64,000 nt of DNA from Candidatus Korarchaeum sp. (GTDB taxonomy: Archaea > Korarchaeota > Korarchaeia > Korarchaeales > Korarchaeaceae): positions 301,141 to 365,140 of the forward strand of contig JAJHQZ010000001.1 in the NCBI GenBank assembly GCA_020833055.1, read 5' to 3'. Positions within the stretch are counted from its first letter, which is position 1. The number at the start of each line of letters is the position of its first letter. The notes beneath the pieces were generated by a model. The model searched no databases and was not told where the DNA came from. It saw nothing but the letters and a program-made list of their open reading frames with translations. Shown here in pieces: positions 48,073 to 63,076 of the stretch. The position numbers and the translations under genes are program-made.

Positions 48073-50067
48073 CTATTGGAAGAGCTCCGATGTCTCTCTC
48101 TTTTCATCTCTCTTCATCAGTAATTGCCTATAGTCCTCTATCAAACTCACTATATCGAACTCAGTGCCTCTCTTCAACTCCTTATTTTCTCCGCTTCTAG
48201 CTAGCAACTTCAGGGCTTCATCCATCGGTATCACTGGTGTTATCCCATTCCAAGCTATCCTATAATTCTCCTCAGAGTCGACGAATATGCCTTCCTCTGA
48301 AGCTCTCATCAGGAAATCCGGGGGAGGGGGCCTACCCCTATAGAGTAAGATCTTGACCCCAATGCTCTTAAGTTTCTTGACGACGCTACTACTAGCTCCT
48401 GAAGCATCTAAAACTAATATGACCTCAGCGTTCTCATTCATAGAATCTATCTTTTCCTTAGCCAGTGAGGAGAGTACCTTGATCTTTATCCCAGGTATCT
48501 CGCTCCTCTCAGATAATGCCTTCAACTGGGATCTTAGGAGTTCGTTCTGCCACCTCTCCCTCTCTAACTCCTTCTCCAACTCCCTTATCCTAGAATCCCT
48601 AGCGGATATCCTCCTGTCTATCTCTATCTCCAAGTTCCTCATCTCCTCTAGGTACTCTATCCTCCTCCGGAGATCTGATATCTCCTCATCCTTCTTCCTT
48701 ATCATCTCTTTGTACCTCTCTATCTCCTCCTTTAGCTCCCTTATCTTCAAAATAAGCCTCTTAACGTAATTATCCGCTCTAGCCAACTCCTTCCTCAACT
48801 CGAAGTACTTAGATTCCCTCCCGACTTCCTTAGAGGAGAACTCCTCTAAAGCTGCGGATATAGGTGTCCCCTTCAGGACTCTGCTCAATATGAGATCAGC
48901 GTCCTTCCCGAGGCCCGCTTCCTCAATTCTAGCCCTCGCTTTAGCTATAAGATTCTTAACTCTCTGGTATGCCTTCAAGGCTGCGGCGAGCGAATCCCTC
49001 TCATGCGAGCTCTCCACCCTTATCCCCTTCCTCTCCTCGAACTCCATAACTATTTTCCTCTTCTCTTCAGCTTTCATATCATATTTAGCAACAATAAGCT
49101 TAGAATCGAACATATTAGCTATCCTAACTACGCTTTTCGGGGGAGGATTTACATCTGTCGCTATTATGACGGGGTATCCGTAATTCAGTATCTCCTCAAT
49201 TATCTCAGATCTGGAAGCTCTCCTCATCGTTCTGAGGGAGAGCAATTCGCCATTCAAGTCCATTATCGCTAGGCCAATGGACATACCGGGATCTATGCCC
49301 ACTATCAGTGGCCTGGATTTAGGCAGAGTTGAGAACTGCTCTCCAGGGAACTTCACTTTGCTCTTCCAGGAATGCGATATTATTATCCTGAAGGGCGACC
49401 ACTCGCTGCTCTCCTTTATCACTTTCTTCACTTCCTCAGGATCCGCGTAAACTATGAATTCAGCCCTCCTAAGCCCTCCTGAAGCCCTCTCAACGTAAAG
49501 ATCATAGTCTAAATTAGCTTTATCGAGCTCAGTAGCTATCCTATTCGCCTCGCTCAATATACTAGCTTCTATAGACCTCCTCCACCTATCGCTCCCAGAT
49601 CCCCCTTGCTTAACGCTCCTGTTCCTCGTGACCAATATCCTGGTCTCCGGGTACATAGCGATAGCTTCCATCCCGATGCCGAGCATAGCTAAGTTTGCTA
49701 CTACCCTAGCTGTGCCCAGGGGATCGGAGTGAGATGGCGAGGGTAGTCCTGCTTCCTTAGCTATCGAGGACAAGGGCCTTATACCGTTAGGCGATCCAGT
49801 GACTTGGACGAGCTTGCACTTAGGTGGTAACTTCTCCATCACCCTCCTGAGGTCACTAGAATCCGAGGCTATCTCGAAAACGTTATCTGTCGCTAAAATA
49901 TTCACATCATACTTCCTCAGGAGATCAAGCACATCATCCAGAGTCACCTCATCAGCTTCGAATAGGACCCCTCCCTCACCGAGGATAGAGATCGAATATA
50001 AGGGCTTCTTACTGGACCTCGGAGACCCTGACTTTATATCTATCCCAGCTACCCTCAAATCCGCCAT
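48073..50067 (-). CDS. DUF460-domain protein (COG2433-like; RNase H-like domains plus coiled coil)
   Basis: IVGIDPG...GLA..DL.G, P.I.ATDV.P.P..V, H.RD.LAAA.KAY and a long coiled coil. Confidence 0.85.
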   Translation of the reverse strand: MADLRVAGIDIKSGSPRSSKKPLYSISILGEGGVLFEADEVTLDDVLDLLRKYDVNILATDNVFEIASDSSDLRRVMEKLPPKCKLVQVTGSPNGIRPLSSIAKEAGLPSPSHSDPLGTARVVANLAMLGIGMEAIAMYPETRILVTRNRSVKQGGSGSDRWRRSIEASILSEANRIATELDKANLDYDLYVERASGGLRRAEFIVYADPEEVKKVIKESSEWSPFRIIISHSWKSKVKFPGEQFSTLPKSRPLIVGIDPGMSIGLAIMDLNGELLSLRTMRRASRSEIIEEILNYGYPVIIATDVNPPPKSVVRIANMFDSKLIVAKYDMKAEEKRKIVMEFEERKGIRVESSHERDSLAAALKAYQRVKNLIAKARARIEEAGLGKDADLILSRVLKGTPISAALEEFSSKEVGRESKYFELRKELARADNYVKRLILKIRELKEEIERYKEMIRKKDEEISDLRRRIEYLEEMRNLEIEIDRRISARDSRIRELEKELERERWQNELLRSQLKALSERSEIPGIKIKVLSSLAKEKIDSMNENAEVILVLDASGASSSVVKKLKSIGVKILLYRGRPPPPDFLMRASEEGIFVDSEENYRIAWNGITPVIPMDEALKLLARSGENKELKRGTEFDIVSLIEDYRQLLMKRDEKRETSELFQ

Positions 50068-50121: not shown

Positions 50122-51408
50122 ATGAGAGGTAAGTTGATAGTCCCGATCCTCATGTTGCTCCAGCTCAACCCCCTGCCTTTGCTATCACAAGGAGGGGTCT
50201 ATGTCCAGATAGAGCCGAGGGAACCATGCATAGCAGGATTTCCCTGTAAGATAAATGTCTCCATATCCAATAGCGATGGAACTATATTGCTGCATAAACT
50301 TAGGCTCATAACACCTTGGGGGGGATTCGTGAAGGACTTGGGACTGAGGGAAGTGAGAACTGGTGAGTCCCTGAGAGTACAAGTAATCGTGAATGTGAGC
50401 ATAGACTCCCTGGAGGGCCCGAACTTCCTGAGACCGGAGCTCATATACTTCCTCAGGGGGGAGATAGGGATGAAGAGCACTCAAGGGAATTCCTCAGCTA
50501 TCTTAATTCAACGTCCCAAGATCGTAACTAGCCTCTTAGCCTCTCCCCTGAGTTATCAGATCTCCTTAGGTGAGCCTCTGATCTTAGAGGGGAGCTTCAG
50601 GGTTGATGGGATTCCAAGCGACTTTTACCCAACGATGAGCGTTTATGTAGATGGTGTTCCAGTTATAGAGAAGAGAATGGACTCATCGAGTGGACTCTTC
50701 TCGATACAAGTTCCATTAGCTAAACCAGGCATTCATGAGGTCAATTTGAGTCTCTGCTACTTGATAGGATGCGAATCCAGGACTTTCAGTGTTGTAGTTG
50801 TTGAGGCTCCCAAGGAACAGTTATCGATCGAATTGAACTCAACGAAGAGGTACTTCCAGGATCTCCTGAACTACTATAGGACCGCAGTCAATGATACGAT
50901 ACCAATCTCGAGTTATGTGCTCTCCAATATATCGGCGATAGATTCCTTGATCAGTGAAGCTGAGGGTATCTTGAGTAAGAATATATCGGGAGGTGATCAG
51001 AGAGCTAAGGATCTCCTCAACAGATCGAGGGAGCTCATCTCCCTCACTATGGGGGAGATCACCAAAGCATACAGGGAAACTCTTTTATCAAAATTACATG
51101 ATTTAAGAAATGAGCTGGATTCAATTTCTAAAATAATAGATGAGAAGACCTACAGGGAGATCAACACCAGCTTGGGTGAACTCGAGAATGAGGTGATATC
51201 GATATCCCCGAGCAATGCCTCGAAAACTTATCGGGATGTCATGAGCGAGATCGAGAGTATAAAGAAGATAATAAATTCCAAGAGGGAGAGTCTAATGAGC
51301 GATGTCGCTAAACTATCCTTAGTCCTAGTGACCCTCCTCCTGATTTCAATCGTTTCTATAACAATGCTTATCTTGAGGGCTTGGAGAGGGGAGGTTAGGC
51401 CAGGGTGA
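50122..51408 (+). CDS. Hypothetical secreted/membrane-anchored protein
   Basis: Signal-like N-terminus, beta-rich (Ig-like) region, helical region and C-terminal TM followed by basic residues. Confidence 0.6.
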   Translation: MRGKLIVPILMLLQLNPLPLLSQGGVYVQIEPREPCIAGFPCKINVSISNSDGTILLHKLRLITPWGGFVKDLGLREVRTGESLRVQVIVNVSIDSLEGPNFLRPELIYFLRGEIGMKSTQGNSSAILIQRPKIVTSLLASPLSYQISLGEPLILEGSFRVDGIPSDFYPTMSVYVDGVPVIEKRMDSSSGLFSIQVPLAKPGIHEVNLSLCYLIGCESRTFSVVVVEAPKEQLSIELNSTKRYFQDLLNYYRTAVNDTIPISSYVLSNISAIDSLISEAEGILSKNISGGDQRAKDLLNRSRELISLTMGEITKAYRETLLSKLHDLRNELDSISKIIDEKTYREINTSLGELENEVISISPSNASKTYRDVMSEIESIKKIINSKRESLMSDVAKLSLVLVTLLLISIVSITMLILRAWRGEVRPG

Positions 51409-51412
51409 TCAA

Positions 51413-53206
51413 ATGTGCGGGATAGTGGGGATCATCAGGAGCAAACAGGGGGTGCTCTCAGATCTACTCAAATCCCTTAAGAGCCTCGAATACAGAGGCT
51501 ATGACTCCGCTGGGATCGCGATCTCGCTCGGAGAGGAGATATTCATCGTGAAGGGAGTCGGGACGATAGATCAAGTCATAAGAGGCGTTGAGATACCCGA
51601 TGGGAGTATAGGGATAGGGCACACTAGATGGGCGACTCACGGTGGTGTGAGTTTTGAGAACGCTCATCCTCATACATCTTGCGATGGGAAGATAGCGGTA
51701 GTTCACAACGGTACCTTGGATGGGTTCGAGCAGTTGAGGGATTATCTGAGAGCGAGGGGTCACGTATTCAGATCCGAGACAGATACTGAAGTGATAGCTC
51801 ACTTAGTCGAGGAGGGGATGAGGGAGGGATTGGATCCCCTACTATCGCTCCACAGAGCTGTGAGTATGCTGGAGGGAAGTTACGCTATAGCGATGATCCT
51901 AGTCGGGTATAACTCGATATATCTAGCTAGGAGGAAGAGCCCTCTCGTGATAGGGCTGGGAAAGGGGGAGAATTACTGCGCATCCGATGTATCGGCTTTA
52001 TTGCATCTCACTAAGGAGTTCATATTCCTTGAGGATGGGGAGCTCGCTGAGATAACTCCTGAGGGTGTGAGGATCTGGGGAGGGGATGGGGAGCTCGTAG
52101 CTGTAGAGAGGGGGGTCGAGGTAATCGACTGGTCCCCTCAACAGATGGAAAAGGGGAAGTATGAGTACTTCATGCTGAAGGAGATAAATGAGCAACCTCA
52201 TATACTCAGGAAAATAGCTGATACTATAGAGTACTATAAGAAGTTCTCCGAGAGACTCGGATCGATGCTAAAGAGGGGATCTCTATCGATAGTAGCTGCA
52301 GGGACATCTATGCATGCTGGCCTCATAGGTAAATTCTACCTCTCAACACTAGCCGGGTTCGGATCTGATGTGATTATAGCATCCGAATTCCCGGAGTGGT
52401 CGAACCATATCTCGGAGGGGGACGTGATACTAGCCATAAGCCAATCGGGGGAGACTGCTGACGTATTAGAAGCAGTTAGGATAGCTAAGAGTAAGGGAGC
52501 TAAGGTGTTCTCAATAGTTAACGTCCCGGGAAGCACTCTCACGAGGCTCTCGGATGAGTACGTTTTCATACAAGCGGGCCCTGAGATTGGAGTAGCTGCT
52601 ACGAAGACATTCACAGCGCAAGTCGCCTCCCTCTATGTGATATCCTCCATCATCTCAGATCCCAGTTCCTTGGGGGATCTCAGGAGGAAGCTCCTCAGTA
52701 TCTCTGACTCGATCTTGAGGAACATGGGGAGGATCGATGAGGAATCTAAGGAAGTAGCTGTTTTATTGAGGTCGAAGGAGCATGTCTTCTTCCTGGGCAG
52801 GGGTGTGAACTATCCCACGGCTTTAGAAGGGGCCCTCAAACTCAAGGAGATAAGTTACATACATGCGGAGGGTTATGCGGCAGGCGAGTATAAGCACGGG
52901 CCCCTCGCATTAATAGAGAGGGGAGTTCCCGTAATAGCTTTGATACCGAAGGAGAGGTCCCTGCTAAATAAGATAATATATAACTTGATGGAAGTTAAGG
53001 CCAGAGGTTCGTTCACAATAACTATACAGCCACAAGGTCTGAGCTTACCCTCCGATAGGCAACTCGCATTAGATGTAGAAGACGAGCTCACATCACCTCT
53101 GATTTACGCAATTCCTCTCCAGTTAATAGCTTACTACACAGCTCTAGAGCTAGGAAGGAATCCTGATAAGCCTAGGAACTTAGCTAAGAGCGTTACAGTA
53201 GAGTGA
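51413..53206 (+). CDS. glmS: Glutamine-fructose-6-phosphate transaminase (isomerizing)
   Basis: MCGIVG, LEYRGYDSAG, GHTRWATHG, SQSGETAD, EGALKLKEISY.HAEG and PRNLAKSVTVE. Confidence 0.98.
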   Translation: MCGIVGIIRSKQGVLSDLLKSLKSLEYRGYDSAGIAISLGEEIFIVKGVGTIDQVIRGVEIPDGSIGIGHTRWATHGGVSFENAHPHTSCDGKIAVVHNGTLDGFEQLRDYLRARGHVFRSETDTEVIAHLVEEGMREGLDPLLSLHRAVSMLEGSYAIAMILVGYNSIYLARRKSPLVIGLGKGENYCASDVSALLHLTKEFIFLEDGELAEITPEGVRIWGGDGELVAVERGVEVIDWSPQQMEKGKYEYFMLKEINEQPHILRKIADTIEYYKKFSERLGSMLKRGSLSIVAAGTSMHAGLIGKFYLSTLAGFGSDVIIASEFPEWSNHISEGDVILAISQSGETADVLEAVRIAKSKGAKVFSIVNVPGSTLTRLSDEYVFIQAGPEIGVAATKTFTAQVASLYVISSIISDPSSLGDLRRKLLSISDSILRNMGRIDEESKEVAVLLRSKEHVFFLGRGVNYPTALEGALKLKEISYIHAEGYAAGEYKHGPLALIERGVPVIALIPKERSLLNKIIYNLMEVKARGSFTITIQPQGLSLPSDRQLALDVEDELTSPLIYAIPLQLIAYYTALELGRNPDKPRNLAKSVTVE

Positions 53207-53446
53207 TCACTCCAACGTCACGAATAACACATTATTTCCCCTTATGAAGAGAGTTCCCACACTCCTCTTAACTTCTCCAGATGCCGGATCAACTTCTCTC
53301 GCAGAATCTAGCACTAAGTTCATCATCTCATCATAAACAATGAGCTTCCCAACTATCTGGCTTCCGTTCTTCAATCTCACAGTCACTTCTGCACCATGGG
53401 ACTTCTTGAGATGAGATAGGGGGAGTTCCTTACTGGAGCTATCCAT
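53207..53446 (-). CDS. lsm: Sm-like (Lsm/SmAP) RNA-binding protein
   Basis: V.V.LKNG....G.L..YD..MNLVL and G..FIRG.NV.F. Confidence 0.93.
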   Translation of the reverse strand: MDSSSKELPLSHLKKSHGAEVTVRLKNGSQIVGKLIVYDEMMNLVLDSAREVDPASGEVKRSVGTLFIRGNNVLFVTLE

Positions 53447-53490
53447 ATAGATCTACCTCCACCTCCAGTATCAAAAATAAATGCATTTCC

Positions 53491-54123
53491 TCACCTACTG
53501 CTGAGGGCTATCCTCTCTATCTCCTCCTTCCTCCTTATAGCGAAACTCCTGTTCCTATCATACTCTGCAGCTGCAATTATCTCCTCAGCGAGAGCCTCCG
53601 CTAGGCTTCTGGGACTTCTGAAGGCCTTCATAGCAGCTCCTTGTGCTATATGCCTTATAGCCAGATCAACCATCCTACTGGGGGATGTATCAACAGCGTG
53701 GAAGTAACTCACGCCTCCGTACATAATCCTCGTGACCTCCTCCCTTATTATAGAGTTCTCTATAGCATCGAGGAACACTTGAATAGGATTTCTTCCAGTC
53801 CTCAATTCTATTATCTCAAATGCGTACTTTACAGTCCTCAGGGCTTTCAATTTCTTCCCTTGGTTCTTGCTATTGACGTGGTCTTTCTTACTCCCAGCGT
53901 TGATCGCCTGCCCCATCAATCTGTTCACTAACCTCTCTACTATGGGTAGCTCCAGCTTCCCGAACTTCTTATGCTCATGCCTACCTCCCGTATGCGGTAA
54001 GTAAACTGGCTTGAGCGATATGACATTCTTCAATGCTATGTTCTCTATCTTCAAATCATCATAACTCCATTTCCCAAATAATTTTATCTGAGGCCCCGGA
54101 TTGGATCCACTCTCACTACTCAT
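53491..54123 (-). CDS. rps7: 30S ribosomal protein S7
   Basis: KLFGKWS, PHTGGRH..K.F.K...PIVERL.N.LM, NPIQV, VD.SP.R..D and LAEE. Confidence 0.97.
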
Positions 54124-54128
54124 CCCGA

Positions 54129-54569
54129 TCACCTACTAGGCTTCTCCTTCTTCCCCCTGAGTATAGCTTCTAGAGAGACCCCGTTCACCTTTATCACTTT
54201 GAACCTGACCCCCGGTATATCTCCCATAGACCTACCTTTAGATCCACCTATCCCTTCCACGATCACTTCATCGTGCTCATTTATCACGTTGAGGGCTCCA
54301 TCTCCCGGAGCAAATGCTGTTATTATAACACCGTTCTTCGCTAACTGGACTTTAACAGCTTTTCTGAGTCCTGAGTGCGGCTGCCTGGCCTCGAGACCTA
54401 CTTTCTCGAGCACTATGCCTCTAGCCATAGGGGCCCCCTCGAGAGGATCGAACTTCTCCTTGAGTCTATAGAGCCTCCTCTTCACCCTCCAGCTGTGCAG
54501 CCTCTTCTCCTTATACTTCTCCCTGAGTATCCTAGCAGCGTAAAGGCCCATAGGTGATTTCTTACCCAT
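54129..54569 (-). CDS. rps12: 30S ribosomal protein S12 (uS12)
   Basis: [36 protein letters not shown] and [10 protein letters not shown]. The decoding loop reads QPHSGLRK. Confidence 0.97.
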
Positions 54570-54573
54570 ACCA

Positions 54574-55050
54574 TCACCTCGAATCATGAGGTACCCACGT
54601 AGCTATTTTAACGTTGTCTATATCGTACCACCTCTTAGCTAGTAACCTAGTCCTCTTTATCCTCCTCCCGTTCCTCCCGATAGCTAGGCTCTTATCTTCA
54701 TCTGGGACGTAAGCTATTGCCGTGATACCGTCATCTTGATGAACTATTTTCACTTTCTGAACTCTAGCTGGGCTCAAAAGATTAGCTATGAATCCCTCGG
54801 GACTATCGTCGAACTCGACGACCTCTATGTCATAATCTAAATCCCCCTTTAGGAACTTCTTCATAGCTTTCAACTTCCTGCCCCCCTTCCCGACGGCTCT
54901 TCCGAGATCCCCTTTCTCGACGACGAATATCAGCCTGTTCTCATCTCTGTCCTCGACTACGTCCCTAGGGCTGACTCCCAGCATATCCTGGAAGAGCTTT
55001 ATATACCTCAATTGCTCTGGAGCTATAGTGACCTTCCTCCTAGTTATCAT
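54574..55050 (-). CDS. nusA: Archaeal NusA (KH-domain) transcription factor
   Basis: LRYI.LF, V..G..G.A.GKGG, IEVVE, F..N...PA and AIG.NG; lies in the RNAP operon. Confidence 0.92.
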
Positions 55051-55370
55051 CTCGACTCCTCCAGCTCCCTCAAGACCTCAACTATCCTTGACTCCCCCTC
55101 TTCCATGATAGCAGCAGCTGATACGAAGAAGGGCTTCTTGAAGGCCCTCCCCAGGTCCAATGACTTCCCCGGATATTTGTAGATAGGAACTCCAGCTAAT
55201 TTAGAGAGGTACTCCAGCTCCATCCCTAGTTCCTCAGGTATGTTACTCGCTAGGACAACTAGCTTCGGGTTGCTTCCAGACTTAAGCTGTTTTATCACTT
55301 TCTTCGCCCCTAATATCACTTTTCCTGATTTAAGGGCGAGGTAGAGCTCGGATTCTACTTCGCTACTCAT
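55047..55370 (-). CDS. rpl30e: 50S ribosomal protein L30e
   Basis: SGKV.LG.K, KLV..ASN.P and LG....KPF.VS...I...GES.I. Confidence 0.95.
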   Translation of the reverse strand: MSSEVESELYLALKSGKVILGAKKVIKQLKSGSNPKLVVLASNIPEELGMELEYLSKLAGVPIYKYPGKSLDLGRAFKKPFFVSAAAIMEEGESRIVEVLRELEESR

Positions 55371-58300
55371 TCCTCAACATCTCCCCCATTTTCCCACTCA
55401 AGTCCCATAGTACTGCTACTTTGCCCGTCCCTATAGGTGGGGTCTGTCCCATTATTAAGGCATCGAGTGGGCCCAGTATCCTATTCACCTCCCCCTTCCT
55501 AGCCGTATTTAGTATCACATGAGTAGTCCACTCGAAGGCCATCTTGCTCAAGGGGGTCTTCATCTCACTGAAGAAGCCAGAGGGCACACCAGCGGCCTGA
55601 AGCCTTATAGCTTCTATCGTCCCTGAGTACGTCATTATATCGGCTACGAGTGAGATGTACCTCCTATCTACCTCTAGTCCCTGCTCCTCAAGGATACTAG
55701 CGAGCTCATTGAATATACAGTTCCTCGCGGCCTCTATACCGAGCACCCTCTCTATCTCCTTACAATCATTCGTGATAGTCCTCGCTATATCTACGCAACT
55801 CATACTCAATACAGCTGCTAAATTAGATCCAGAGGTCCTTATAACGTACTCCTTCTTTCCATTTGTCTCAACTGTCTCTACCCATGCTCTCTTTATTCCC
55901 CTGACGCCAGATACGGGCTTATCCAGTATCCTATAAGCCCAAGATCTGAGGGTTTGGAGGGGCTTATCCCTCCCCGCCGCTTCGTAAAGGTCCACTATTA
56001 TCTTATCGCCCTCCACTTCGACTTCCCCCTTCATCCCCTTCACTGTAGTTCTTATTATATTCAAGAACCTATCCATAGGTATCATGTTGTTCTCTAAAGC
56101 CCTCTTATCTGGTTTTATCGTTAACCTATAATTGAAGTTATCAATAGCGTATTCCTCTATGAGATCCCTCACTCTTAGCTCCCTCAAGTTCCTGAGCAAC
56201 TTCCTGAGGTTCGATAGGTCCTCTTGACACTTTGGTTTGAGATATATCTTCATCGTCGGCGTGCTAGTCGATGCGTAGAAGACCAGCTCCTTGAACCTCT
56301 CTACACCGTGGGTCACATCCATAGCTAAGAGGCCCGGCGCATGGAAAGTCCTGAGGACCATCTGTGTAGTGGGTTCAGCGATACTTTGAGCGCTTATCAG
56401 ACCTATAGGCGTGAGGACCTCTACCTTAGCCCTCTCGAATCCCTCCTTCAGCTCAGCTATTATCTCCTTCAACTCACTCTCCTTAGGCCTCGCTTTATAT
56501 ATAGTATCAGCTAGGGAGAGAGGGAGGTTCTCTTCCTTCAGTAATTCCTCAATTCTATCCTTCGAGACCCCTCTCTTCCTCTCCTCCTTCACATACTTCC
56601 TTATTATCCTCTCCAAATTGACTGGCTCGTTCCTGAAGAGCTTCGTGGGGTCGTAACCATCGCCCCCGAACTTGAACTGGATTATATGTCCCATCGAATC
56701 CCTGACTGTCTCATCGTAGGAGACGTATACGTCCTTCAGGGAGTTAGCCACCCTCCTGTAGAAGTATCCACTATCCTCAGTCCTCCTGCCCTTATCTATC
56801 AGGGACTCCCTGCTCGACATAGCGTGGAAGATGAACTCAGCTGGGGTCAAACCGCTCACGTAACTGTTCTTAACGAAACCTCTAGCTTCAGGGCTCAGAT
56901 CCCCTCTCTGGAAGTAAGAGAGGACCCTGTCCTTATATCCCTTCCTCGGCCTCCCGCTCGTTAGCACGAACCCTATCCTAGTCTTGACTTTCTGCTGGCC
57001 GACTTGACCCATTATCTGAGCTAAGTTCGCCATAGAACCTCTCGCTCCAGTCTTAGCCATTATGCTCACATTCGACTTCGGGTCCACGTACTTCGATATC
57101 ACACTGCTAACTTTACTCCAGAAGCTATCTATGGACTGGACTATATCGAACTCAAGCATCTGCTCCTCTCTCAATATCCTTAAGAGCTCCTCCTTCGTCC
57201 TGTAGATCGTGATCTTCCTCGTTATCGGTCTGCTCCTTATCAATCTCATAACTTCTTCCTTCATATTGGAGTATATTTCCTCTATCTCCTTCTTAGCTTC
57301 CTCGGGTACCATGAGCTCCTTCGGTGAGTTAGTTATACCGTAAAGGAGCACTTCTTTCGATGCTATCTTCAAGAGCTTATTTAGGAAATCCATCGCAACG
57401 TCCTCGCCGTAATCCCTTATCAGGACATCTATCAGAGTCAATCTCCCCTTAACGAGAGTACCAACTATATTATCATCCAGGACTCCTGAGAGGAGCTCCC
57501 CATTCCTTATAAGCACGTATCCATCTCCTAAGCAGAAGGGATCATTGCATTCCGAAGCCTTGACCGCTGACTTTGCTATACTCTCGAAGTTCAAGTCCTT
57601 GGGGAGCAATGTCGAGATGAGCTGCTTCCCTGTCCAGAGTCTCTTAGGCCTCTTTATAGCGGGCTCAGGTAATTGAGTTATACCCGCTCTTGAGAGGATC
57701 CTAGTGGCCTCATTCTTATCGAATAGGGAGTCCTTCTTCGTTATCATGTAGAGAGCAGTTATGAAGTCCTGCCTAGCTCCTATTATGGAGCCCCCGGTCC
57801 TGGGGGAGAGCATGTTGTACTTCACTCCCATGAGCTCCCTCACTTCAACGCTACCGTCCAGTATCTGGGGCACGTGTAAGTTCATCTCATCTCCATCGAA
57901 GTCAGCATTATAGGGGACGCAGACAGCTGGATGGAGCCTGAAAGTAGCTCCTGGCAGTACTTTAACCCTATGACCTAACATTGAGAGCTTGTGGAGGGAG
58001 GGCTGCCTGTTGAATATGACGTAATCACCATCCATGAGGTGCCTCTCAACTATATCTCCCGGTTCCAATTGCTCAGCCGCTTCCCTCAGAGCGTCCTTCC
58101 CCTTCCTCTGAAGTATCTTCAAGCTTATGGGCGTGACCCCTCCCTTCCTTATGGCATTAGCGCCCGGGTACTCATCAGGCCCCCTCATGACCAATTCCTT
58201 CAGCTTCTCTATGTTGTTCTCATTAACGTACTCTGGGACAGTGAGGACCATCGCTATCTCAATGGGGACACCGACTTCATCGATATCTATCATGGGATCA

Positions 58301-59337
58301 GGGGATATCACAGTTCTAGCTGAGAAATTGACCCTTTTACCTATCAAATTCTTCCTGAGCCTTCCCTCCTTCCCGCTGAGCCTCTGGAATAGTGATTTGA
58401 GCGGCCTCCTAGTCCCCTTCTGCATAGCTACAGGCATGCCCGCTGTAGCGTTATTGAAGAAGACGCTCACCCAGTATTGTAGATGGTCCCATTCACTCTC
58501 AACCATACTCACGGGAGCACCTACTTTCTTAGAATTATTCAGCTTCCTGTTGGCCTTCAGGATCTCAACTAATATGTGAGTCAGATCGTCCTCAGACCTC
58601 TCACCGGTCTCGAGGTATATCGAGGGCCTAGCTGTCAGAGGGGGGACCAATAGGACTGTGAGAACTGTCCACTCAGGTCTAGCTTTCTTAGGGTCAAATC
58701 CCACTAGAAGGGAATCATCATCACTGATTTTCTCCAATATGTCCCTTATCTCATTGGGCCACAGTCTCCTAGGCTCTGGTTCCTTGATAATGAATTTGTA
58801 GACTTCCTCTAACTCGACTCTATGGATGGGAGCTCCGCAATGAGGGCACTTCTTATGCTTCTTAACGTAAAGCTTGACTTGCTCCCTCACTTCCCTCACG
58901 AGTTCATCATCGATCACTTTCTCTGGGTTGTCCCTAGCGTACTCATGAGCTCTCTCAATGAAATGAGATCTCCTCTCTTGGGGCAGCAGGACCTTCCCGC
59001 ACTTGTGACAGACAGTATTGAGGACGTCCTTTATCCTCTTCACGTAACCTATGTGTATCACGGGCATCGCTAACTCTATCCTTCCGAAGTGCCCAGGGCA
59101 GTTCTTAGGGAGGTTCCCACATACAGGACACCTCTGCCTCGGATTTATAGTCCCGAGCCTAGGATCGAGGACGCCTCCTTGGACTGGGAGGCCTCCCTCA
59201 TCGTAAGCAGTAGGTTCAGTTATCTCTATGAACCCTATCTTCCTAGCGTCAGCTGGCGATATTAACCCGAAGATGACTTTATCGAGTTTACAAGGCAGGA
59301 TCTCCTCCTCAGGCACTGGCTCCCATATCAAAGCCAA
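55363..59337 (-). CDS. rpo1: DNA-directed RNA polymerase largest subunit, fused A'+A'' (Rpo1)
   Basis: C..C......CPGHFG, GKEGR.R.NL.GKRV.FSARTVI, NRQPSLH and NADFDGDEMN, with A''-type C-terminal motifs in one 1324-aa ORF. TTG start. Confidence 0.98.
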   Translation of the reverse strand: MALIWEPVPEEEILPCKLDKVIFGLISPADARKIGFIEITEPTAYDEGGLPVQGGVLDPRLGTINPRQRCPVCGNLPKNCPGHFGRIELAMPVIHIGYVKRIKDVLNTVCHKCGKVLLPQERRSHFIERAHEYARDNPEKVIDDELVREVREQVKLYVKKHKKCPHCGAPIHRVELEEVYKFIIKEPEPRRLWPNEIRDILEKISDDDSLLVGFDPKKARPEWTVLTVLLVPPLTARPSIYLETGERSEDDLTHILVEILKANRKLNNSKKVGAPVSMVESEWDHLQYWVSVFFNNATAGMPVAMQKGTRRPLKSLFQRLSGKEGRLRKNLIGKRVNFSARTVISPDPMIDIDEVGVPIEIAMVLTVPEYVNENNIEKLKELVMRGPDEYPGANAIRKGGVTPISLKILQRKGKDALREAAEQLEPGDIVERHLMDGDYVIFNRQPSLHKLSMLGHRVKVLPGATFRLHPAVCVPYNADFDGDEMNLHVPQILDGSVEVRELMGVKYNMLSPRTGGSIIGARQDFITALYMITKKDSLFDKNEATRILSRAGITQLPEPAIKRPKRLWTGKQLISTLLPKDLNFESIAKSAVKASECNDPFCLGDGYVLIRNGELLSGVLDDNIVGTLVKGRLTLIDVLIRDYGEDVAMDFLNKLLKIASKEVLLYGITNSPKELMVPEEAKKEIEEIYSNMKEEVMRLIRSRPITRKITIYRTKEELLRILREEQMLEFDIVQSIDSFWSKVSSVISKYVDPKSNVSIMAKTGARGSMANLAQIMGQVGQQKVKTRIGFVLTSGRPRKGYKDRVLSYFQRGDLSPEARGFVKNSYVSGLTPAEFIFHAMSSRESLIDKGRRTEDSGYFYRRVANSLKDVYVSYDETVRDSMGHIIQFKFGGDGYDPTKLFRNEPVNLERIIRKYVKEERKRGVSKDRIEELLKEENLPLSLADTIYKARPKESELKEIIAELKEGFERAKVEVLTPIGLISAQSIAEPTTQMVLRTFHAPGLLAMDVTHGVERFKELVFYASTSTPTMKIYLKPKCQEDLSNLRKLLRNLRELRVRDLIEEYAIDNFNYRLTIKPDKRALENNMIPMDRFLNIIRTTVKGMKGEVEVEGDKIIVDLYEAAGRDKPLQTLRSWAYRILDKPVSGVRGIKRAWVETVETNGKKEYVIRTSGSNLAAVLSMSCVDIARTITNDCKEIERVLGIEAARNCIFNELASILEEQGLEVDRRYISLVADIMTYSGTIEAIRLQAAGVPSGFFSEMKTPLSKMAFEWTTHVILNTARKGEVNRILGPLDALIMGQTPPIGTGKVAVLWDLSGKMGEMLRNE

Positions 59338-59347
59338 ATTCCCACCC

Positions 59348-62300
59348 CTATATCTCCTCCTTAACGCTCAGCCTCACATCTATGTGCCCGCTCATCAGCT
59401 CCTCTATGAATAACTTCGAAGCGTAACTAGTTATCAGGGGCTTGACTTCAACTGAGGACTGGCACCTCGGGCAGAAGAACTCATTAGTCTTCTGGTTGAA
59501 GAAAGCTATAGTTCCGCATTCCTTGCAGACGTAAATAACAGTCTTATCGGACTGATCTATGTACCTATCCCTTATGACAGAAGCGGCTCCATGGGATATC
59601 AAAACTTCGCCCTCCATCTCACCGAGCCTGAGCCCTCCTCCCCTGGCCCTCCCCTCAACTGGCTGCCTCGTGAGGAGTTGCATCTGCCCCCTAGCTCTAG
59701 CGTGTATCTTATCCCTCACCATGTGCTTGAGCCTCTGGTAGTAGCTTATCCCTATGAAGACGGGGGCCTTCAACATCCTCCCAGTCCTCCCATCGTACAT
59801 TATCTCCTCTCCACTGTACTCGAATCCCAGCTTGACCAATGCCTCCATCAAATCCTCAACGGGCTCTGACATGAATGGAGTCGCATCCACGAACCTCCCC
59901 TCCAGAGCTCCGACTTTTCCAGCTATTATCTCGTAGAGCTGGCCTATAGTCATCCTCGAAGGTATCGTGTGAGGATCTAAGACTATATCGGGTACTATCC
60001 CCTGAGCTGTGAAGGGCATGTCCTCATGCCTGTATATCATCCCAAGCACTCCTTTCTGCCCATGCCTAGTAGCGAACTTATCACCTAGTTCAGGAGGCCT
60101 CGTATCTCTCACATTCACTCTTACGAGCTTCTCCCCACCCGTCTTAGTAGCTAGTAATACGTCTGTGACTACTCCCCTCTCCCAAGCCCTCATCGAGATA
60201 GATGTGTCCCTCCTCTCGAATGTGTACTGAGGATACCCGCTCCCCACGGTCAGCTCTGGTGAGAACCTCGGGGGGCTAGTCTTCCCTATGAGGATATCCC
60301 CTCCCTCTACGTAAGTCTCGGGATCCACTATGCCATCCTCACCCAGCTTCTGGTAGTACTGCTCCTCCTTCTTACCTGAGACCTTCTTCAGGGCTACTGG
60401 ATTCTCGAACTTATCTCCCTCTATTATAGCATGCCTCCTCGCCTCAGTCTCGTAAGTCCTGAAGAACACAGCTCTAGCAGCCCCCCTATCTATAGCTCCC
60501 TTCGACATCACTAGTGCGTCGTCCATGTTATACCCGTCCATTGGGAGGAGGGCGACGACTAAGTTCTGGCCCGCTGGTCTGTAATTGTAACCAGTTATCT
60601 CAGCTCCCCTAGTCTGGACTATGGGCTTCTGGGGGTAGAACATTAAGAATGCCCTACTATCGAATCTGAGCCTCCAATTCGCTAAATACTCCCCTAACCC
60701 TTGCCTCACCATATTCGCTCCTATTATGTCCCTAGGTATGTTATTGTGCTCAGCGTAAGGTATCTGTGAAGCAGCTACGCCGAACATAGTGTAAGGAGCG
60801 AAATCGAGGTGCGTGTGCTTATCGGTTATCTCCTCTATGCTCTGCGCAACTACAGCATACTCCTCCTCATCTGGGTCTAATAGCTCAACTATCCCCATTT
60901 TCACGAGATCAGTGAAGCTTATCTCACCGGAATCTACCTTCGGGAGGAGCTCTATAGCTTCCTTCAACTTGCTGACTGGGATGAGGGGCCTCCTCATCCT
61001 CCCAGCATCGGCGTTTATGAATACAGCCCCCTCCTCCTTATTGTATATGAAGTTGACCTCTGTGCTCAGTTCAGCTCTCTTCCCCTTCAGGAACCTTATA
61101 AGTTCCTCTGGCTTATCTGTGAAAGCTATGAGCCTCCCATTGACATATATCGGGGTTAAACTCCCGACTTCCTTAGGTTTAGCTTCCTTAGCTGGTTTCG
61201 CGCCCCAATCGAGCACTAACTCTATTATGGGCTCGGGATCCGTCCCGAACGTCACATCGCAGAATATAGCTAAGCTCCTCACTAGACCTACGTTCGTCCC
61301 CTCCGGAGTCTCTAATGGGCACAACCTCCCTATGCTAGTCCCGTGGGTCTGCCTAACTTCATGGAGCGGGAGGCCGGCGGGGAGGGGGGAATTGACCCTC
61401 CTCAAGTGATGAAGTGTAGCTATGTAATTCGTCCTCTCTAGGTTCTGACTCACTCCCAGATCCCCTCCTGGCCAAGCACCTGTAGCTACAGCCCTTATTA
61501 TCCTCTGGGTGACGAGCTTCTGGCTCTGAATTATCCTCCTTATATCCAAGTCATAGACGCCGCTGCTCAATTGCTCATCAGCTTTCTCCTTTAGCTTCCT
61601 GACTAGTTGATAGAAAGCGTCCCTGAATACTTCCTGCATTAGAGTACCCGATAGCCTCAGCCTCTTGTTGGAGAAGTGATCCTTATCGTCCGGCTCTAAC
61701 TTGCCCCTGACGACCTTTAGTAACTTCTCTATCATCTTAGCTAGGAAGTAAGCCTTGACTATGTTATCCTCCTCAGTCACCCCTATGTGAGGGAGGAAGT
61801 TGTTCTTCAAGTACTCCTTAGCGTACCTTATCCTATCGGCCTTCGGGACAGCTTGAACGAGTCTCCTGCCTATGTAATCTAATGCCTCCTCTCTCGTTAT
61901 TATCTGCGTCCCTTCCTCCTCAGCTCTCCTCTGGACGTCATCTAAACTGTAGAGGAACTCGTTCCTTATCTCATCGTCCACAGAGGATATAGCGTCCACT
62001 ATATCCTCGTCCCTCTCCAACCCCAATGCCTTCAAGAGCATCGCTACAGGGATCCCTCTGAGAGCTCCCGTAGATGCTTTTATCGTCCCGTCCCTCATGT
62101 AGTACTCTAAGTAAAGCCTGGTCCTCAGACCAGCTCTAGCTGAGACTATCTGAGCTACATGCGAATAGGGTTTGTTCTCAGCTACTGTCTGCTCGACTAT
62201 CACTTTATTGGGTGCTATATCATCCCTCATGACGAGGACTCTCTCAGAGCCGTTTATTATGAAGTAGCCACCCGGATCCCTGGGATCCTCCCCCTTGCTT

Positions 62301-62713
62301 ATCAACTTCTTCTCATCTAACCCATATAAGTAGCATCCCTTCGATTTCACCATTATGGGGAGGTGGCCTATCCTCACCCTCTCAGTCTTGAGCTCCATAC
62401 CTCCAGCGTATACCTTGATCTCCAGCTCGATGGGAGCTATGTAATCCGCGTTCCTCAACCTTATCTCATTGGGCATCGCTGGGAGTGAGGAACCATCGTA
62501 CTCATCTATCTCGGGCCTTCCAACGTATACCTTGCTGAGTATCAGCTTGTAATTCTCGACTAACTCTATCTCCTTGAAAGCATCGACTACTTCCTGTATG
62601 CCCCTCTCCAAGAACCTGTTGAACGACTCTATCTGGACATCGGCTAAGTTCCTCTCCCTGAAGTAAGCCTTGACTATCGGATAGAAATCAACCCCATTCC
62701 TCTTAGATAGCAA
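59348..62713 (-). CDS. rpo2: DNA-directed RNA polymerase subunit B (Rpo2), unsplit
   Basis: GGYFIINGSERV, CP.ETPEG, GDKFATRHGQKG, PSRMT.GQ, KHMV.DK.HAR, GGLR.GEME and a C-terminal zinc ribbon. Confidence 0.98.
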   Translation of the reverse strand: MLSKRNGVDFYPIVKAYFRERNLADVQIESFNRFLERGIQEVVDAFKEIELVENYKLILSKVYVGRPEIDEYDGSSLPAMPNEIRLRNADYIAPIELEIKVYAGGMELKTERVRIGHLPIMVKSKGCYLYGLDEKKLISKGEDPRDPGGYFIINGSERVLVMRDDIAPNKVIVEQTVAENKPYSHVAQIVSARAGLRTRLYLEYYMRDGTIKASTGALRGIPVAMLLKALGLERDEDIVDAISSVDDEIRNEFLYSLDDVQRRAEEEGTQIITREEALDYIGRRLVQAVPKADRIRYAKEYLKNNFLPHIGVTEEDNIVKAYFLAKMIEKLLKVVRGKLEPDDKDHFSNKRLRLSGTLMQEVFRDAFYQLVRKLKEKADEQLSSGVYDLDIRRIIQSQKLVTQRIIRAVATGAWPGGDLGVSQNLERTNYIATLHHLRRVNSPLPAGLPLHEVRQTHGTSIGRLCPLETPEGTNVGLVRSLAIFCDVTFGTDPEPIIELVLDWGAKPAKEAKPKEVGSLTPIYVNGRLIAFTDKPEELIRFLKGKRAELSTEVNFIYNKEEGAVFINADAGRMRRPLIPVSKLKEAIELLPKVDSGEISFTDLVKMGIVELLDPDEEEYAVVAQSIEEITDKHTHLDFAPYTMFGVAASQIPYAEHNNIPRDIIGANMVRQGLGEYLANWRLRFDSRAFLMFYPQKPIVQTRGAEITGYNYRPAGQNLVVALLPMDGYNMDDALVMSKGAIDRGAARAVFFRTYETEARRHAIIEGDKFENPVALKKVSGKKEEQYYQKLGEDGIVDPETYVEGGDILIGKTSPPRFSPELTVGSGYPQYTFERRDTSISMRAWERGVVTDVLLATKTGGEKLVRVNVRDTRPPELGDKFATRHGQKGVLGMIYRHEDMPFTAQGIVPDIVLDPHTIPSRMTIGQLYEIIAGKVGALEGRFVDATPFMSEPVEDLMEALVKLGFEYSGEEIMYDGRTGRMLKAPVFIGISYYQRLKHMVRDKIHARARGQMQLLTRQPVEGRARGGGLRLGEMEGEVLISHGAASVIRDRYIDQSDKTVIYVCKECGTIAFFNQKTNEFFCPRCQSSVEVKPLITSYASKLFIEELMSGHIDVRLSVKEEI

Positions 62714-62716
62714 GAT

Positions 62717-63076
62717 TCACCCCTCCTGAACTTCCTGAAGATGCCTTTCCCTCACTACGTACCTGTAATAGATCCCCTCATCCCTATATATCTTTATCAG
62801 ATCCCCCGGTTTCGCCCCCAACCTCTCGACCATAGGATCGCTCTCCAATATCTTCGGGAAGAGATCTAGAGGGCCGTACTTCTGGATGAGAGCTATCTTC
62901 TCCTCTTCGCTCACTATCTCATGCTTCGGGACCATCAAGCTCTCCTCTATGTTTACCTTCAGGGGCTTCCTTAACTTCTTCCCCTTCTTCTCCTCGACTT
63001 CTATAAGGGACTCCTCTTCAGTCTCGTAATCCAGGGGGGCGCCAGCCCCCCGTAGGATATCTTCCTCCTCTACCAA
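62717..63076 (-). CDS. rpo5: RNA polymerase subunit Rpo5/H with N-terminal extension
   Basis: VPKHEI..EEE, PKI..SDP....GAKPGD.IKI.R and YYR.VV. Confidence 0.93.
   Translation of the reverse strand: MVEEEDILRGAGAPLDYETEEESLIEVEEKKGKKLRKPLKVNIEESLMVPKHEIVSEEEKIALIQKYGPLDLFPKILESDPMVERLGAKPGDLIKIYRDEGIYYRYVVRERHLQEVQEG

Follow-up and report, generated by a model that had tools for sequence, protein, structure and literature searches.

Rare, lineage-fixed substitutions in the bridge helix and other mobile active-centre elements of the sole Korarchaeum RNA polymerase

We have analysed a stretch of 64,000 nucleotides from a Candidatus Korarchaeum genome (assembly GCA_020833055.1, contig JAJHQZ010000001.1, positions 301,141-365,140), referred to here as the window, which carries the RNA polymerase (RNAP) operon with rpo1, the gene for the largest subunit (Rpo1), and within it the bridge helix of the active centre, which had been singled out in a first-pass annotation of the sequence. 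This helix belongs to a single, conserved and selected housekeeping enzyme, its substitutions are rare elsewhere, fixed in the lineage and of stepwise origin, and other mobile elements of the active centre have changed along with it. All five Rpb1 domains (1-5; Pfam PF04997, PF00623, PF04983, PF05000 and PF04998) were matched in this particular order in one frame of rpo1, with E-values from 1e-83 to 3e-16, and the gene therefore encodes an unsplit A'+A'' Rpo1. The gene order of the locus, rpoH-rpoB-rpoA-L30e-nusA-S12-S7, is that of the standard archaeal RNA polymerase operon. The relevant features, in window coordinates, are as follows.

55363-59337, minus strand: rpo1 (rpoA), largest RNAP subunit, unsplit A'+A'', 1324 residues, TTG start (open reading frame (ORF) and translation)
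56731-56838, minus strand: bridge helix, Rpo1 residues 834-869, EFIFHAMSSRESLIDKGRRTEDSGYFYRRVANSLKD (translation)
56272-56391, minus strand: trigger loop and its base helices, Rpo1 residues 983-1022, AQSIAEPTTQMVLRTFHAPGLLAMDVTHGVERFKELVFYA (sequence comparison)
56953-56976, minus strand: eight-residue insertion IGFVLTSG, Rpo1 residues 788-795, in the F-loop equivalent N-terminal of the bridge helix (multiple alignment)
55579-55602, minus strand: LQAAGVPS, Rpo1 residues 1246-1253, with a six-residue insertion in the switch-1-like segment of A'' (multiple alignment)
57889-57909, minus strand: NADFDGD metal-A catalytic loop, Rpo1 residues 477-483, intact (sequence and position)
59348-62713, minus strand: rpo2 (rpoB), unsplit, 1121 residues (all seven Rpb2 Pfam domains)
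61328-61390, minus strand: fork loop 2 region of Rpo2, residues 442-462, SPLPAGLPLHEVRQTHGTSIG (sequence comparison)
62717-63076, minus strand: rpoH (Rpo5), first gene of the operon (Pfam RNA_pol_Rpb5_C)
53491-55370, minus strand: L30e, NusA-KH, S12 and S7, the downstream genes of the operon (Pfam)

Exactly one rpo1 match is present in the assembly to which the window belongs (1.39 Mb in 25 contigs, 99.5% complete). The database proteins nearest to its product carry the label Candidatus Korarchaeum, and the sequence recurs in independent assemblies from several sources. We scanned 40 genomes of the class Korarchaeia, representing three families and seven genera: 37 of them, including all 23 of high quality, have one rpo1 match each, in every case unsplit and 1269-1346 codons long where the contig permits. 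A closed genome of the same genus (1,590,757 bp; L004) has a single rpo1, with a helix identical to that of the window. A second, canonical rpo1, whose existence the first-pass annotation had named as an argument against its own reading, was found neither in the genome of the window nor in the 40 Korarchaeia genomes searched. The gene encodes the sole housekeeping RNAP largest subunit of Korarchaeum. Since it is present in single copy, lies in the main RNAP operon and has retained its catalytic loop, the product is a working enzyme, as had been supposed.

Translation of 56725-56835 on the minus strand gives FIFHAMSSRESLIDKGRRTEDSGYFYRRVANSLKDVY (the leading Glu of the helix is codon 56836-56838), in full agreement with the substitutions first read there; the helix motif, residues 834-863 of Rpo1, is EFIFHAMSSRESLIDKGRRTEDSGYFYRRV. 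Helix positions are given below in the numbering of Methanocaldococcus jannaschii A', where M808 is the Met of HAM. Compared with the canonical archaeal helix, that of Korarchaeum carries G809S, G810S, G813S, T817K, A818G, V819R, A822E, Q823D, M827F, Q828Y and L831V, Gly-Gly at 809-810 (the N-terminal hinge, BH-HN) thus being replaced by Ser-Ser. The residues T821, G825, Y826 and R829, which are not substitutable in M. jannaschii (PMC2776397), are all present, as T853, G857, Y858 and R861.

We searched 1.84 billion representative proteins by phmmer, using 66 residues around the helix as the query, and obtained 3720 matches. A single representative, from Korarchaeaceae, scored below 1e-30, and the next real matches had at most 65% identity. 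The second-ranked match, P0067, is spurious, its score being the sum of about 13 weak repeat matches; it is a protein of 953 residues with about 13 tandem repeats (…QSSGWFYGNGKTSIKPII…). The frequency of each substitution was taken from 190 non-Korarchaeal helices, drawn from the best 150 of the 3720 phmmer matches and from 64 word-search proteins, and the resulting figures are conservative because the sampling favours helices that resemble the query. As a second reference we fetched 79 named archaeal loci from Asgard, Thermoproteota, Euryarchaeota and DPANN, which yielded 73 complete outgroup Rpo1 sequences, with A' and A'' concatenated where split.

R819 and E822 occur in none of the 190 helices (0% each), S810, F827 and V831 in 1.1% each, K817 and G818 in 2.6% each, and I804 (F804I) in 3.7%. 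Position 810 is Gly in 186 of the 190 helices and in all 73 named outgroups, and position 819 is occupied by V, L, I, C, M and, once, Ser. S809 (13%), S813 (10.5%), D823 (10%) and Y828 (14%) are ordinary; variation at 809 and 813 is seen both among DPANN archaea and in further largest subunits of the sample, and other archaea may have A, S, P, Q, K or R at 822. All three hinge glycines are indeed Ser; however, since S809 and S813 are common elsewhere, only one of the three, G810, is near-invariant, and the uniqueness of the two other glycine changes had been overstated. Likewise, the Glu that replaces Ala beside the template-facing Thr was never seen in the 190 helices, although its position is a variable one. 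The rare changes are not widespread in other archaeal Rpo1, as judged from the same helices.

Misalignment of Ser-Ser with Gly-Gly is ruled out: the helix aligned without insertions or deletions in 290 sequences and its flanks are near-invariant, the anchors E802, R811, G825, Y826 and R829 being each 99.5-100% conserved in the sample and H806 90%. Scored against a profile of the non-Korarchaeal helices, the Korarchaeal 30-mer obtains about -76 bits, against a median of -23 and a 5th percentile of -48, and only two other rare helix types score comparably. One of them, P0040/P0043, has the motif DKSLRT in common with an Aenigmatarchaeota locus (L108); Lys at 817 (MDKSLRT) has been acquired independently in this unrelated DPANN-type lineage, and P0040/P0043 also have Ser-Gln in place of Gly-Gly. 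Thus, G810 and T817 have been lost more than once in archaea.

Within Korarchaeia, the helix reads HAM[ST]SRESL[IV]DKGRRTEDSGYFYRRVAN in genera 1-4 of Korarchaeaceae, the family of the window, HSMASRDSLIDKGRRTQDSGYFYRRIAN in genus 5 of this family, HAMAGRDSLVDKGLRTAESGYTYRKLAN in the second family of the same order and HAIAGRETLVDKGLRTAESGYAYRR[VI]VN in the family of the other Korarchaeia order. T817K and A818G (DKG) are found throughout the class, and G810S, R819, E/Q822, D823 and F827 are restricted to Korarchaeaceae; the fixation in Korarchaeota, which the first-pass annotation had proposed to measure, is thus class-wide for DKG and family-confined for G810S and R819. In an Rpo1 tree built after masking of the helix, F-loop and trigger-loop columns, the same stepwise order is recovered, with long stems leading to the class and to the family. 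Across 31 genomes of the family, the 30 helix codons show 71 extra codon variants and only 9 extra amino-acid variants, the corresponding figures for 120 flanking codons being 549 and 197. As the codon variation in the helix is mostly synonymous, the derived helix of Korarchaeaceae is under strong purifying selection.

The trigger loop, SIAEPTTQMVLRTFHAPGLLAMDVTHGVERFKELV, is likewise changed when set against the consensus SiGEPgTQmTlrTFHyAGVaE.nVTlGLPRlIEiv. Its nucleotide-interacting Gln, Leu and His are retained (TTQMVLRTFH; cf. TQM.L.TFH). Throughout the class, the Ala of the Ala-Gly linker, present in 97% of the outgroups, is Pro (FHAPG). The G-x-P hinge has Glu (GVERF) where 100% of the outgroups have Pro, and in Korarchaeaceae Thr occupies the equivalent of M. 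jannaschii A'' G72 and yeast A1076. When 5.8 billion proteins were compared by words with a query the size of A'' and the loop alone was scored, nothing but Korarchaeota fragments was returned. Two variants were noted within the family: in P0022, the catalytic His of the trigger loop is replaced by Arg (LRTFRAPG), and in its relative P0023 the linker Gly is replaced by Ser (FHAPS).

The insertion IGFVLTSG in the F-loop is present in all aligned family members, where its residues are almost invariant across the 31 genomes, and occurs neither in the two deeper Korarchaeia families nor, by the outgroup consensus, in the 73 outgroups; the usual LPHF of the F-loop is LSYF in Korarchaeaceae. In the switch-1-like segment of A'', the six-residue insertion splits the conserved IGR-HG motif, with Arg replaced by Leu and His by Ser, and is directly visible against solved archaeal A'' chains. 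The coordinate range of the match to 1i3q_A (1312-1445) suggests that the replaced Arg and His correspond to R1386 and H1387 of yeast Rpb1, which we take to be the start of switch 1. Near this segment, an upstream RH has become RY, and G.xENV has become GPLDAL. In Rpo2, fork loop 2 reads SPLPAGLPLHEVRQTHGTSIG against the archaeal consensus SPLsrsQphFeARdLH.TqwG, to which the two deeper families are nearer. Only this family has the changes in the F-loop, trigger loop, switch-1-like segment and fork loop 2, the linker Ala-to-Pro replacement being the class-wide exception. Elsewhere in Rpo2, at residues ~759-766 (window ~60416-60439), the conserved motif YpGGqeD is HAIIEGD in the family, Gly-Gly being replaced by Ile-Ile; here too, glycines conserved elsewhere have changed in this family alone.

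We then considered these changes against the divergence of Rpo1 as a whole. At 323 Rpo1 positions at least 90% of the 73 outgroups have one residue. Korarchaeaceae deviate at about 73 of these conserved positions and the deeper Korarchaeia at 57-77, while in the other sampled lineages at most 40 deviate. The mean identity of Rpo1 to the outgroups is 39% (z -3.7), compared with an outgroup average of 53% and with 45% for the next most divergent lineage; Korarchaeal Rpo1 is the most divergent archaeal Rpo1 among those sampled. Its operon companions have identity z-scores of -2.0 (Rpo2), -1.6 (S12) and -1.4 (S7), the two ribosomal proteins serving as divergence controls. The window proteins deviate at 24% (Rpo1), 16% (Rpo2, 43 of 273 sites), 12% (S12) and 10% (S7) of conserved sites.

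For the location of the changes within Rpo1 we defined a family signature as a site where at least 90% of the outgroups have one residue and at least 80% of the family another, the latter being found in at most 3% of the outgroups. Rpo1 has 39 such signatures, and Rpo2 16 among 274 conserved sites. In the bridge helix, 4 of 19 conserved sites carry one, compared with 35 of 304 in the rest of Rpo1 (p=0.26). The trigger loop (8 of 24, p=0.004) and the C-terminal segment of A'' (residues 1215-1300; 10 of 26, p=0.0003) are significantly enriched, and the catalytic region (residues 440-520) is depleted (1 of 45). Pooled, four mobile regions have 23 signatures at 86 conserved sites against 16 at 237 elsewhere, an odds ratio of 5. 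The changes thus cluster in mobile elements of the active centre and spare contact and catalytic residues. The helix is not the main anomaly, and an emphasis on it alone, as in the first-pass annotation, understates the case: the whole mobile module is remodelled.

An AlphaFold2 (AF2) model of Rpo1 residues 420-1324, computed from a 102-row alignment, has an overall predicted local distance difference test (pLDDT) score of 78.6. Its best Foldseek matches are the largest subunits of RNA polymerases III and II (Pol III and Pol II), with E-values of about 1e-53 and template modelling (TM) scores of about 0.75. The bridge helix is predicted to be single and continuous; both inserts and the tip of the trigger loop have pLDDT below 50.

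Published mutagenesis in two model enzymes bears directly on the changed positions. In M. jannaschii, any substitution of G809 or G810 leads to severe loss of activity, which was ascribed to a stiffer N-terminal hinge, and G813 is far less sensitive to substitution (PMC2988716). Superactive substitutions of the same enzyme cluster at D816, Q817, V819, Q823 and S824, on the side facing the trigger loop; V819K and Q823D are named superactive variants, the latter being thought to mimic the Asp-Arg lock by which the kinked C-terminal hinge is stabilised in Thermus (PMC2776397). In the same study A822 accepts bulky residues, G72 of A'' gives wild-type activity as Gly or Ala and superactivity with all other residues, and I98K, which has the conserved G-x-P hinge nearby, resembles the wild type (PMC2776397). 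In yeast Pol II, nearly every replacement of A1087 or G1088 is lethal, loss of function is the outcome for most variants at F1086, V1089, V1094 and P1099, and A1076T is a faster enzyme; the hydrophobic pocket of the open trigger loop is formed by A1076, M1079, T1080, G1097 and L1101 together with I837 and L841 of the helix (PMC5127505). Five of these seven pocket positions are changed in Korarchaeaceae, three in the loop (to T, V and F) and two in the helix (F827 and V831). Read through these phenotypes, the natural sequence combines changes of a slowing type (S809/S810, the linker Pro, Glu for the hinge Pro and Ala for F1086) with changes of an accelerating type (R819, D823, Thr at G72/A1076 and those in the pocket).

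On balance, we favour the reading that the helix is one part of a lineage-fixed, co-evolved and compensated remodelling of mobile active-centre elements. The remodelled set would include the bridge helix, trigger loop, F-loop, switch-1-like segment of A'' and fork loop 2 of Rpo2, and would leave out the catalytic loop and those residues of the helix and trigger loop that touch DNA, RNA or nucleoside triphosphate. It may have arisen in two bursts: one at the base of the class Korarchaeia, where DTA of the helix became DKG and Ala of the trigger-loop linker became Pro, and one at the base of Korarchaeaceae, which would have brought G810S, R819, E/Q822, D823 and F827 in the helix and, elsewhere, both insertions, the loss of the trigger-loop G-x-P hinge and the changes of fork loop 2. 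After both bursts, purifying selection would have frozen the new state.

Mechanistically, the N-terminal glycine hinge would be stiffened, and such stiffening cripples the RNAP of M. jannaschii. By the Pace-Scholtz scale of helix propensity, replacing M-G-G-R-E-G with M-S-S-R-E-S favours the helix by about 1.5 kcal/mol. Candidate offsets are Arg819, which is akin to the superactive V819K, Asp823, which could lock with R829 in a kinked, Thermus-like C-terminal hinge, Thr at the G72/A1076 position of the trigger loop, and a re-packed pocket for the open trigger loop (F827 and V831 of the helix, T1080V and L1101F of the loop). R819 could, to judge from the spacing of the residues, form i/i+3 and i/i+4 salt bridges with D816, E822 and D823. 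The new Gly818 might supply flexibility in the intrinsically labile centre of the helix, as might the D823-R829 lock; the region around 818 was called labile in Weinzierl's simulations. What results would be an active enzyme that arrives at its balance of open and closed states through different contacts. Some shift in its elongation kinetics is probable, and the unusual translocation, pausing or fidelity that had been proposed from the helix is plausible in view of the published mutagenesis. We also entertain, much more tentatively, a bolder possibility: the enzyme may be a natural alternative solution to nucleotide addition, in which the Gly-Gly hinge, Ala-Gly linker, G-x-P hinge and switch-1 Arg-His were lost together, flexibility moved to the central Gly and the Asp-Arg lock, the open-loop pocket was re-packed, and translocation or pausing became measurably different. 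If this were true, the hinge architecture of multisubunit RNAP would be evolvable as a module.

Several points weigh against a compensated remodelling with the helix as one of its parts. The helix as a statistical hot spot within Rpo1 is not supported by the signature counts, and part of the pattern may be plain lineage-wide acceleration, because divergence affects the whole of Rpo1 and, less strongly, also Rpo2 and the ribosomal proteins, and the helix alone is not enriched. P0022 (1326 residues), from a nested lineage of Korarchaeaceae, has Gly at 810 again (HAMSGRESL), so that G810S is not strictly required in this background. The centre of the helix has a pLDDT of only 54-63 in the AF2 model. 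Finally, we infer the mutual compensation of the changes from single-mutant phenotypes in two distant enzymes, and these phenotypes perhaps do not transfer to Korarchaeum, as epistasis is possible.

How the remodelled state was reached may be explained in two ways, which we rate about equal, which have compensation as their common core, and neither of which we would call more than possible. Adaptive re-tuning would mean that the changes were selected for unusual translocation, pausing or fidelity suited to Korarchaeal life. They do sit on experimentally defined rate-controlling positions, the burst was followed by a freeze under strong purifying selection, and acceleration is stronger in Rpo1 than in Rpo2 or in the ribosomal proteins that the operon encodes; however, the mixture of slowing and accelerating changes fits compensation equally well, and a burst followed by a freeze is also expected from compensated drift through a fitness valley. 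Heat alone was not the driver, since other sampled hyperthermophiles, Thermococcus (L069) and Desulfurococcales (L091 and L102), have a canonical helix and loop, and thermoadaptation as the cause is thus ruled out. Alternatively, slightly deleterious changes may have been fixed neutrally in a lineage of small population size, dependent on a host or community, and then repaired at second sites, leaving an ordinary enzyme. Such drift would account for the raised divergence of Rpo1 throughout (23% of conserved sites), of Rpo2 (16%) and, to a milder extent, of S12 and S7 (10-12%), for the lack of enrichment in the helix by itself and for the reversion of G810 in one lineage, and the other known diverged active centre is that of DPANN archaea, which likewise have reduced genomes (PMC8204694). 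It accounts less well for the five-fold concentration of signatures in mobile active-centre elements with depletion of the catalytic region, for an Rpo1 about twice as deviant as the adjoining ribosomal proteins, and for the large kinetic effects that single changes at the affected positions have in two model enzymes.

We consider it improbable that the changes reflect target-site or factor adaptation, i.e., escape from a natural inhibitor or accommodation of a lineage-specific regulator at the secondary channel or helix cap. Circumstantially, the two surface-loop insertions arose at the same node, and the altered elements coincide with the region in which the bridge helix and its contacts to the second-largest subunit are targets of bacterial inhibitors (PMC3959191); against this, no such inhibitor or factor is known, although no search aimed at one was made, many of the changes appear from the description of the yeast pocket to affect buried packing residues (PMC5127505), and the inserts have no confident AF2 structure. 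An artefact, a pseudogene or a specialised second polymerase beside a canonical enzyme is hardly credible: the frame is intact over 1324 codons, the match is the only one in a 99.5%-complete genome and in every rpo1-bearing Korarchaeia genome, including the closed one of 1.59 Mb, identical sequence occurs in independent assemblies, and the codon variation of the helix is mostly synonymous.

Canonical archaeal Rpo1, as known from M. jannaschii and from the solved RNAPs of Saccharolobus, Thermococcus and Pyrococcus, has the same fold, domain order, catalytic loop and operon as that of Korarchaeum. Both have T821, G825, Y826, R829 and R830 and the D816-R820 pair in the helix, and Gln, Leu and His in the trigger loop. 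In addition to the eleven helix substitutions listed above, Korarchaeum differs from the canonical subunit by Pro for Ala in the linker, Glu for Pro in G-x-P, Thr at the G72 equivalent, the eight-residue F-loop insert, the six-residue insert with loss of Arg and His of IGR-HG, and the unsplit subunit.

Divergence of this kind had been thought to be known mainly from specialised polymerases such as plant Pol IV and Pol V. It is not limited to these, as it is also found in Nanoarchaeota and other DPANN archaea: the RNAP of Nanoarchaeum equitans has a diverged helix (Pro822), trigger loop and fork loop 3 and is active when reconstituted (PMC8204694), which makes activity of the Korarchaeal enzyme plausible. 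In both cases the enzyme is the sole RNAP of an archaeal lineage, radical substitutions have hit normally invariant positions in the helix, the trigger loop and a fork loop, those of helix and loop co-occurring in one lineage, and Ser813 and Tyr828 are present. DPANN archaea have Pro822 (RTPKSGYLY; loci L043 and L088) and have kept G810, mostly T817, and A818, whereas Korarchaeaceae have no helix proline, carry Glu822, have lost G810 and have gained K817, G818 and R819. The Nanoarchaeal RNAP is the closest precedent, with a substitution set that differs from the Korarchaeal one. Pol IV and Pol V resemble Korarchaeum in that their bridge helix is strongly diverged from that of Pol II. In both, Pro occupies the S824 position, and the helix of Pol IV is shortened by a two-residue deletion (PMC2988716). 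They are, however, extra specialised paralogues beside Pol II, whereas Korarchaeum has no such paralogue, no helix proline and no deletion, and has Ser at 824.

The residues of the kink lock of the Thermus thermophilus beta' subunit, D1090-R1096, have their equivalents in Asp823 and the invariant Arg829 of Korarchaeum; unlike the rare helix changes, Asp at this position is seen in 10% of the sampled helices. An unsplit A-type RpoA is known from Thaumarchaeota, Aigarchaeota, Bathyarchaeota and Korarchaeota (PMC3082918), and we found the unsplit A'+A'' ORF in 37 of 37 rpo1-bearing Korarchaeia genomes as well as in the sampled Bathyarchaeia and Nitrososphaeria loci. In contrast to Korarchaeum, the sampled unsplit subunits of Bathyarchaeia and Nitrososphaeria have a fully canonical helix and trigger loop; the substitutions are therefore not accounted for by the fusion of A' and A'', which is ruled out as their cause. 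Two contigs titled 'Candidatus Methylomirabilota bacterium' (L047, with an unsplit Rpo1) and 'Proteobacteria bacterium' (L051) carry archaeal rpoB-rpoA operons and are probably mis-binned contigs in public metagenome-assembled genomes. Our literature searches found no paper on the Korarchaeal bridge helix or trigger loop, 'bridge helix' together with Korarchaeum or Korarchaeota giving only unrelated papers.

The type genome of Korarchaeum, a hyperthermophile, has been public since 2008. In its only polymerase, this lineage has fixed changes that are singly severe in M. jannaschii or lethal in yeast, together with candidate compensators. Current models of RNAP lean on presumed invariant residues and on the single mutants made in a handful of model enzymes, and Korarchaeum offers a natural experiment on which 'invariant' residues a polymerase truly cannot do without. 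It opens the questions of how the two hinges of the helix are coupled with the open/closed equilibrium of the trigger loop, how far mutant phenotypes depend on background and how a conserved machine crosses a fitness valley. The matter is of moderate interest to polymerase specialists, and residue swaps are directly testable. Because of its strong rate acceleration, Rpo1 should be used with caution as a phylogenetic marker for Korarchaeia unless this is allowed for.

As to the surroundings of the locus (window 53206-53491 and 51413-53206), the rpo/str operon ends at S7, with no EF-2 or EF-1alpha gene after it. S7 is followed by a convergent plus-strand gene for a GlmS-like amidotransferase with GATase and SIS domains. 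Further on, an ORF of 428 residues without a Pfam match (window 50122-51408, plus strand) adjoins the gene for a DUF460 protein of 664 residues (48073-50067, minus strand).

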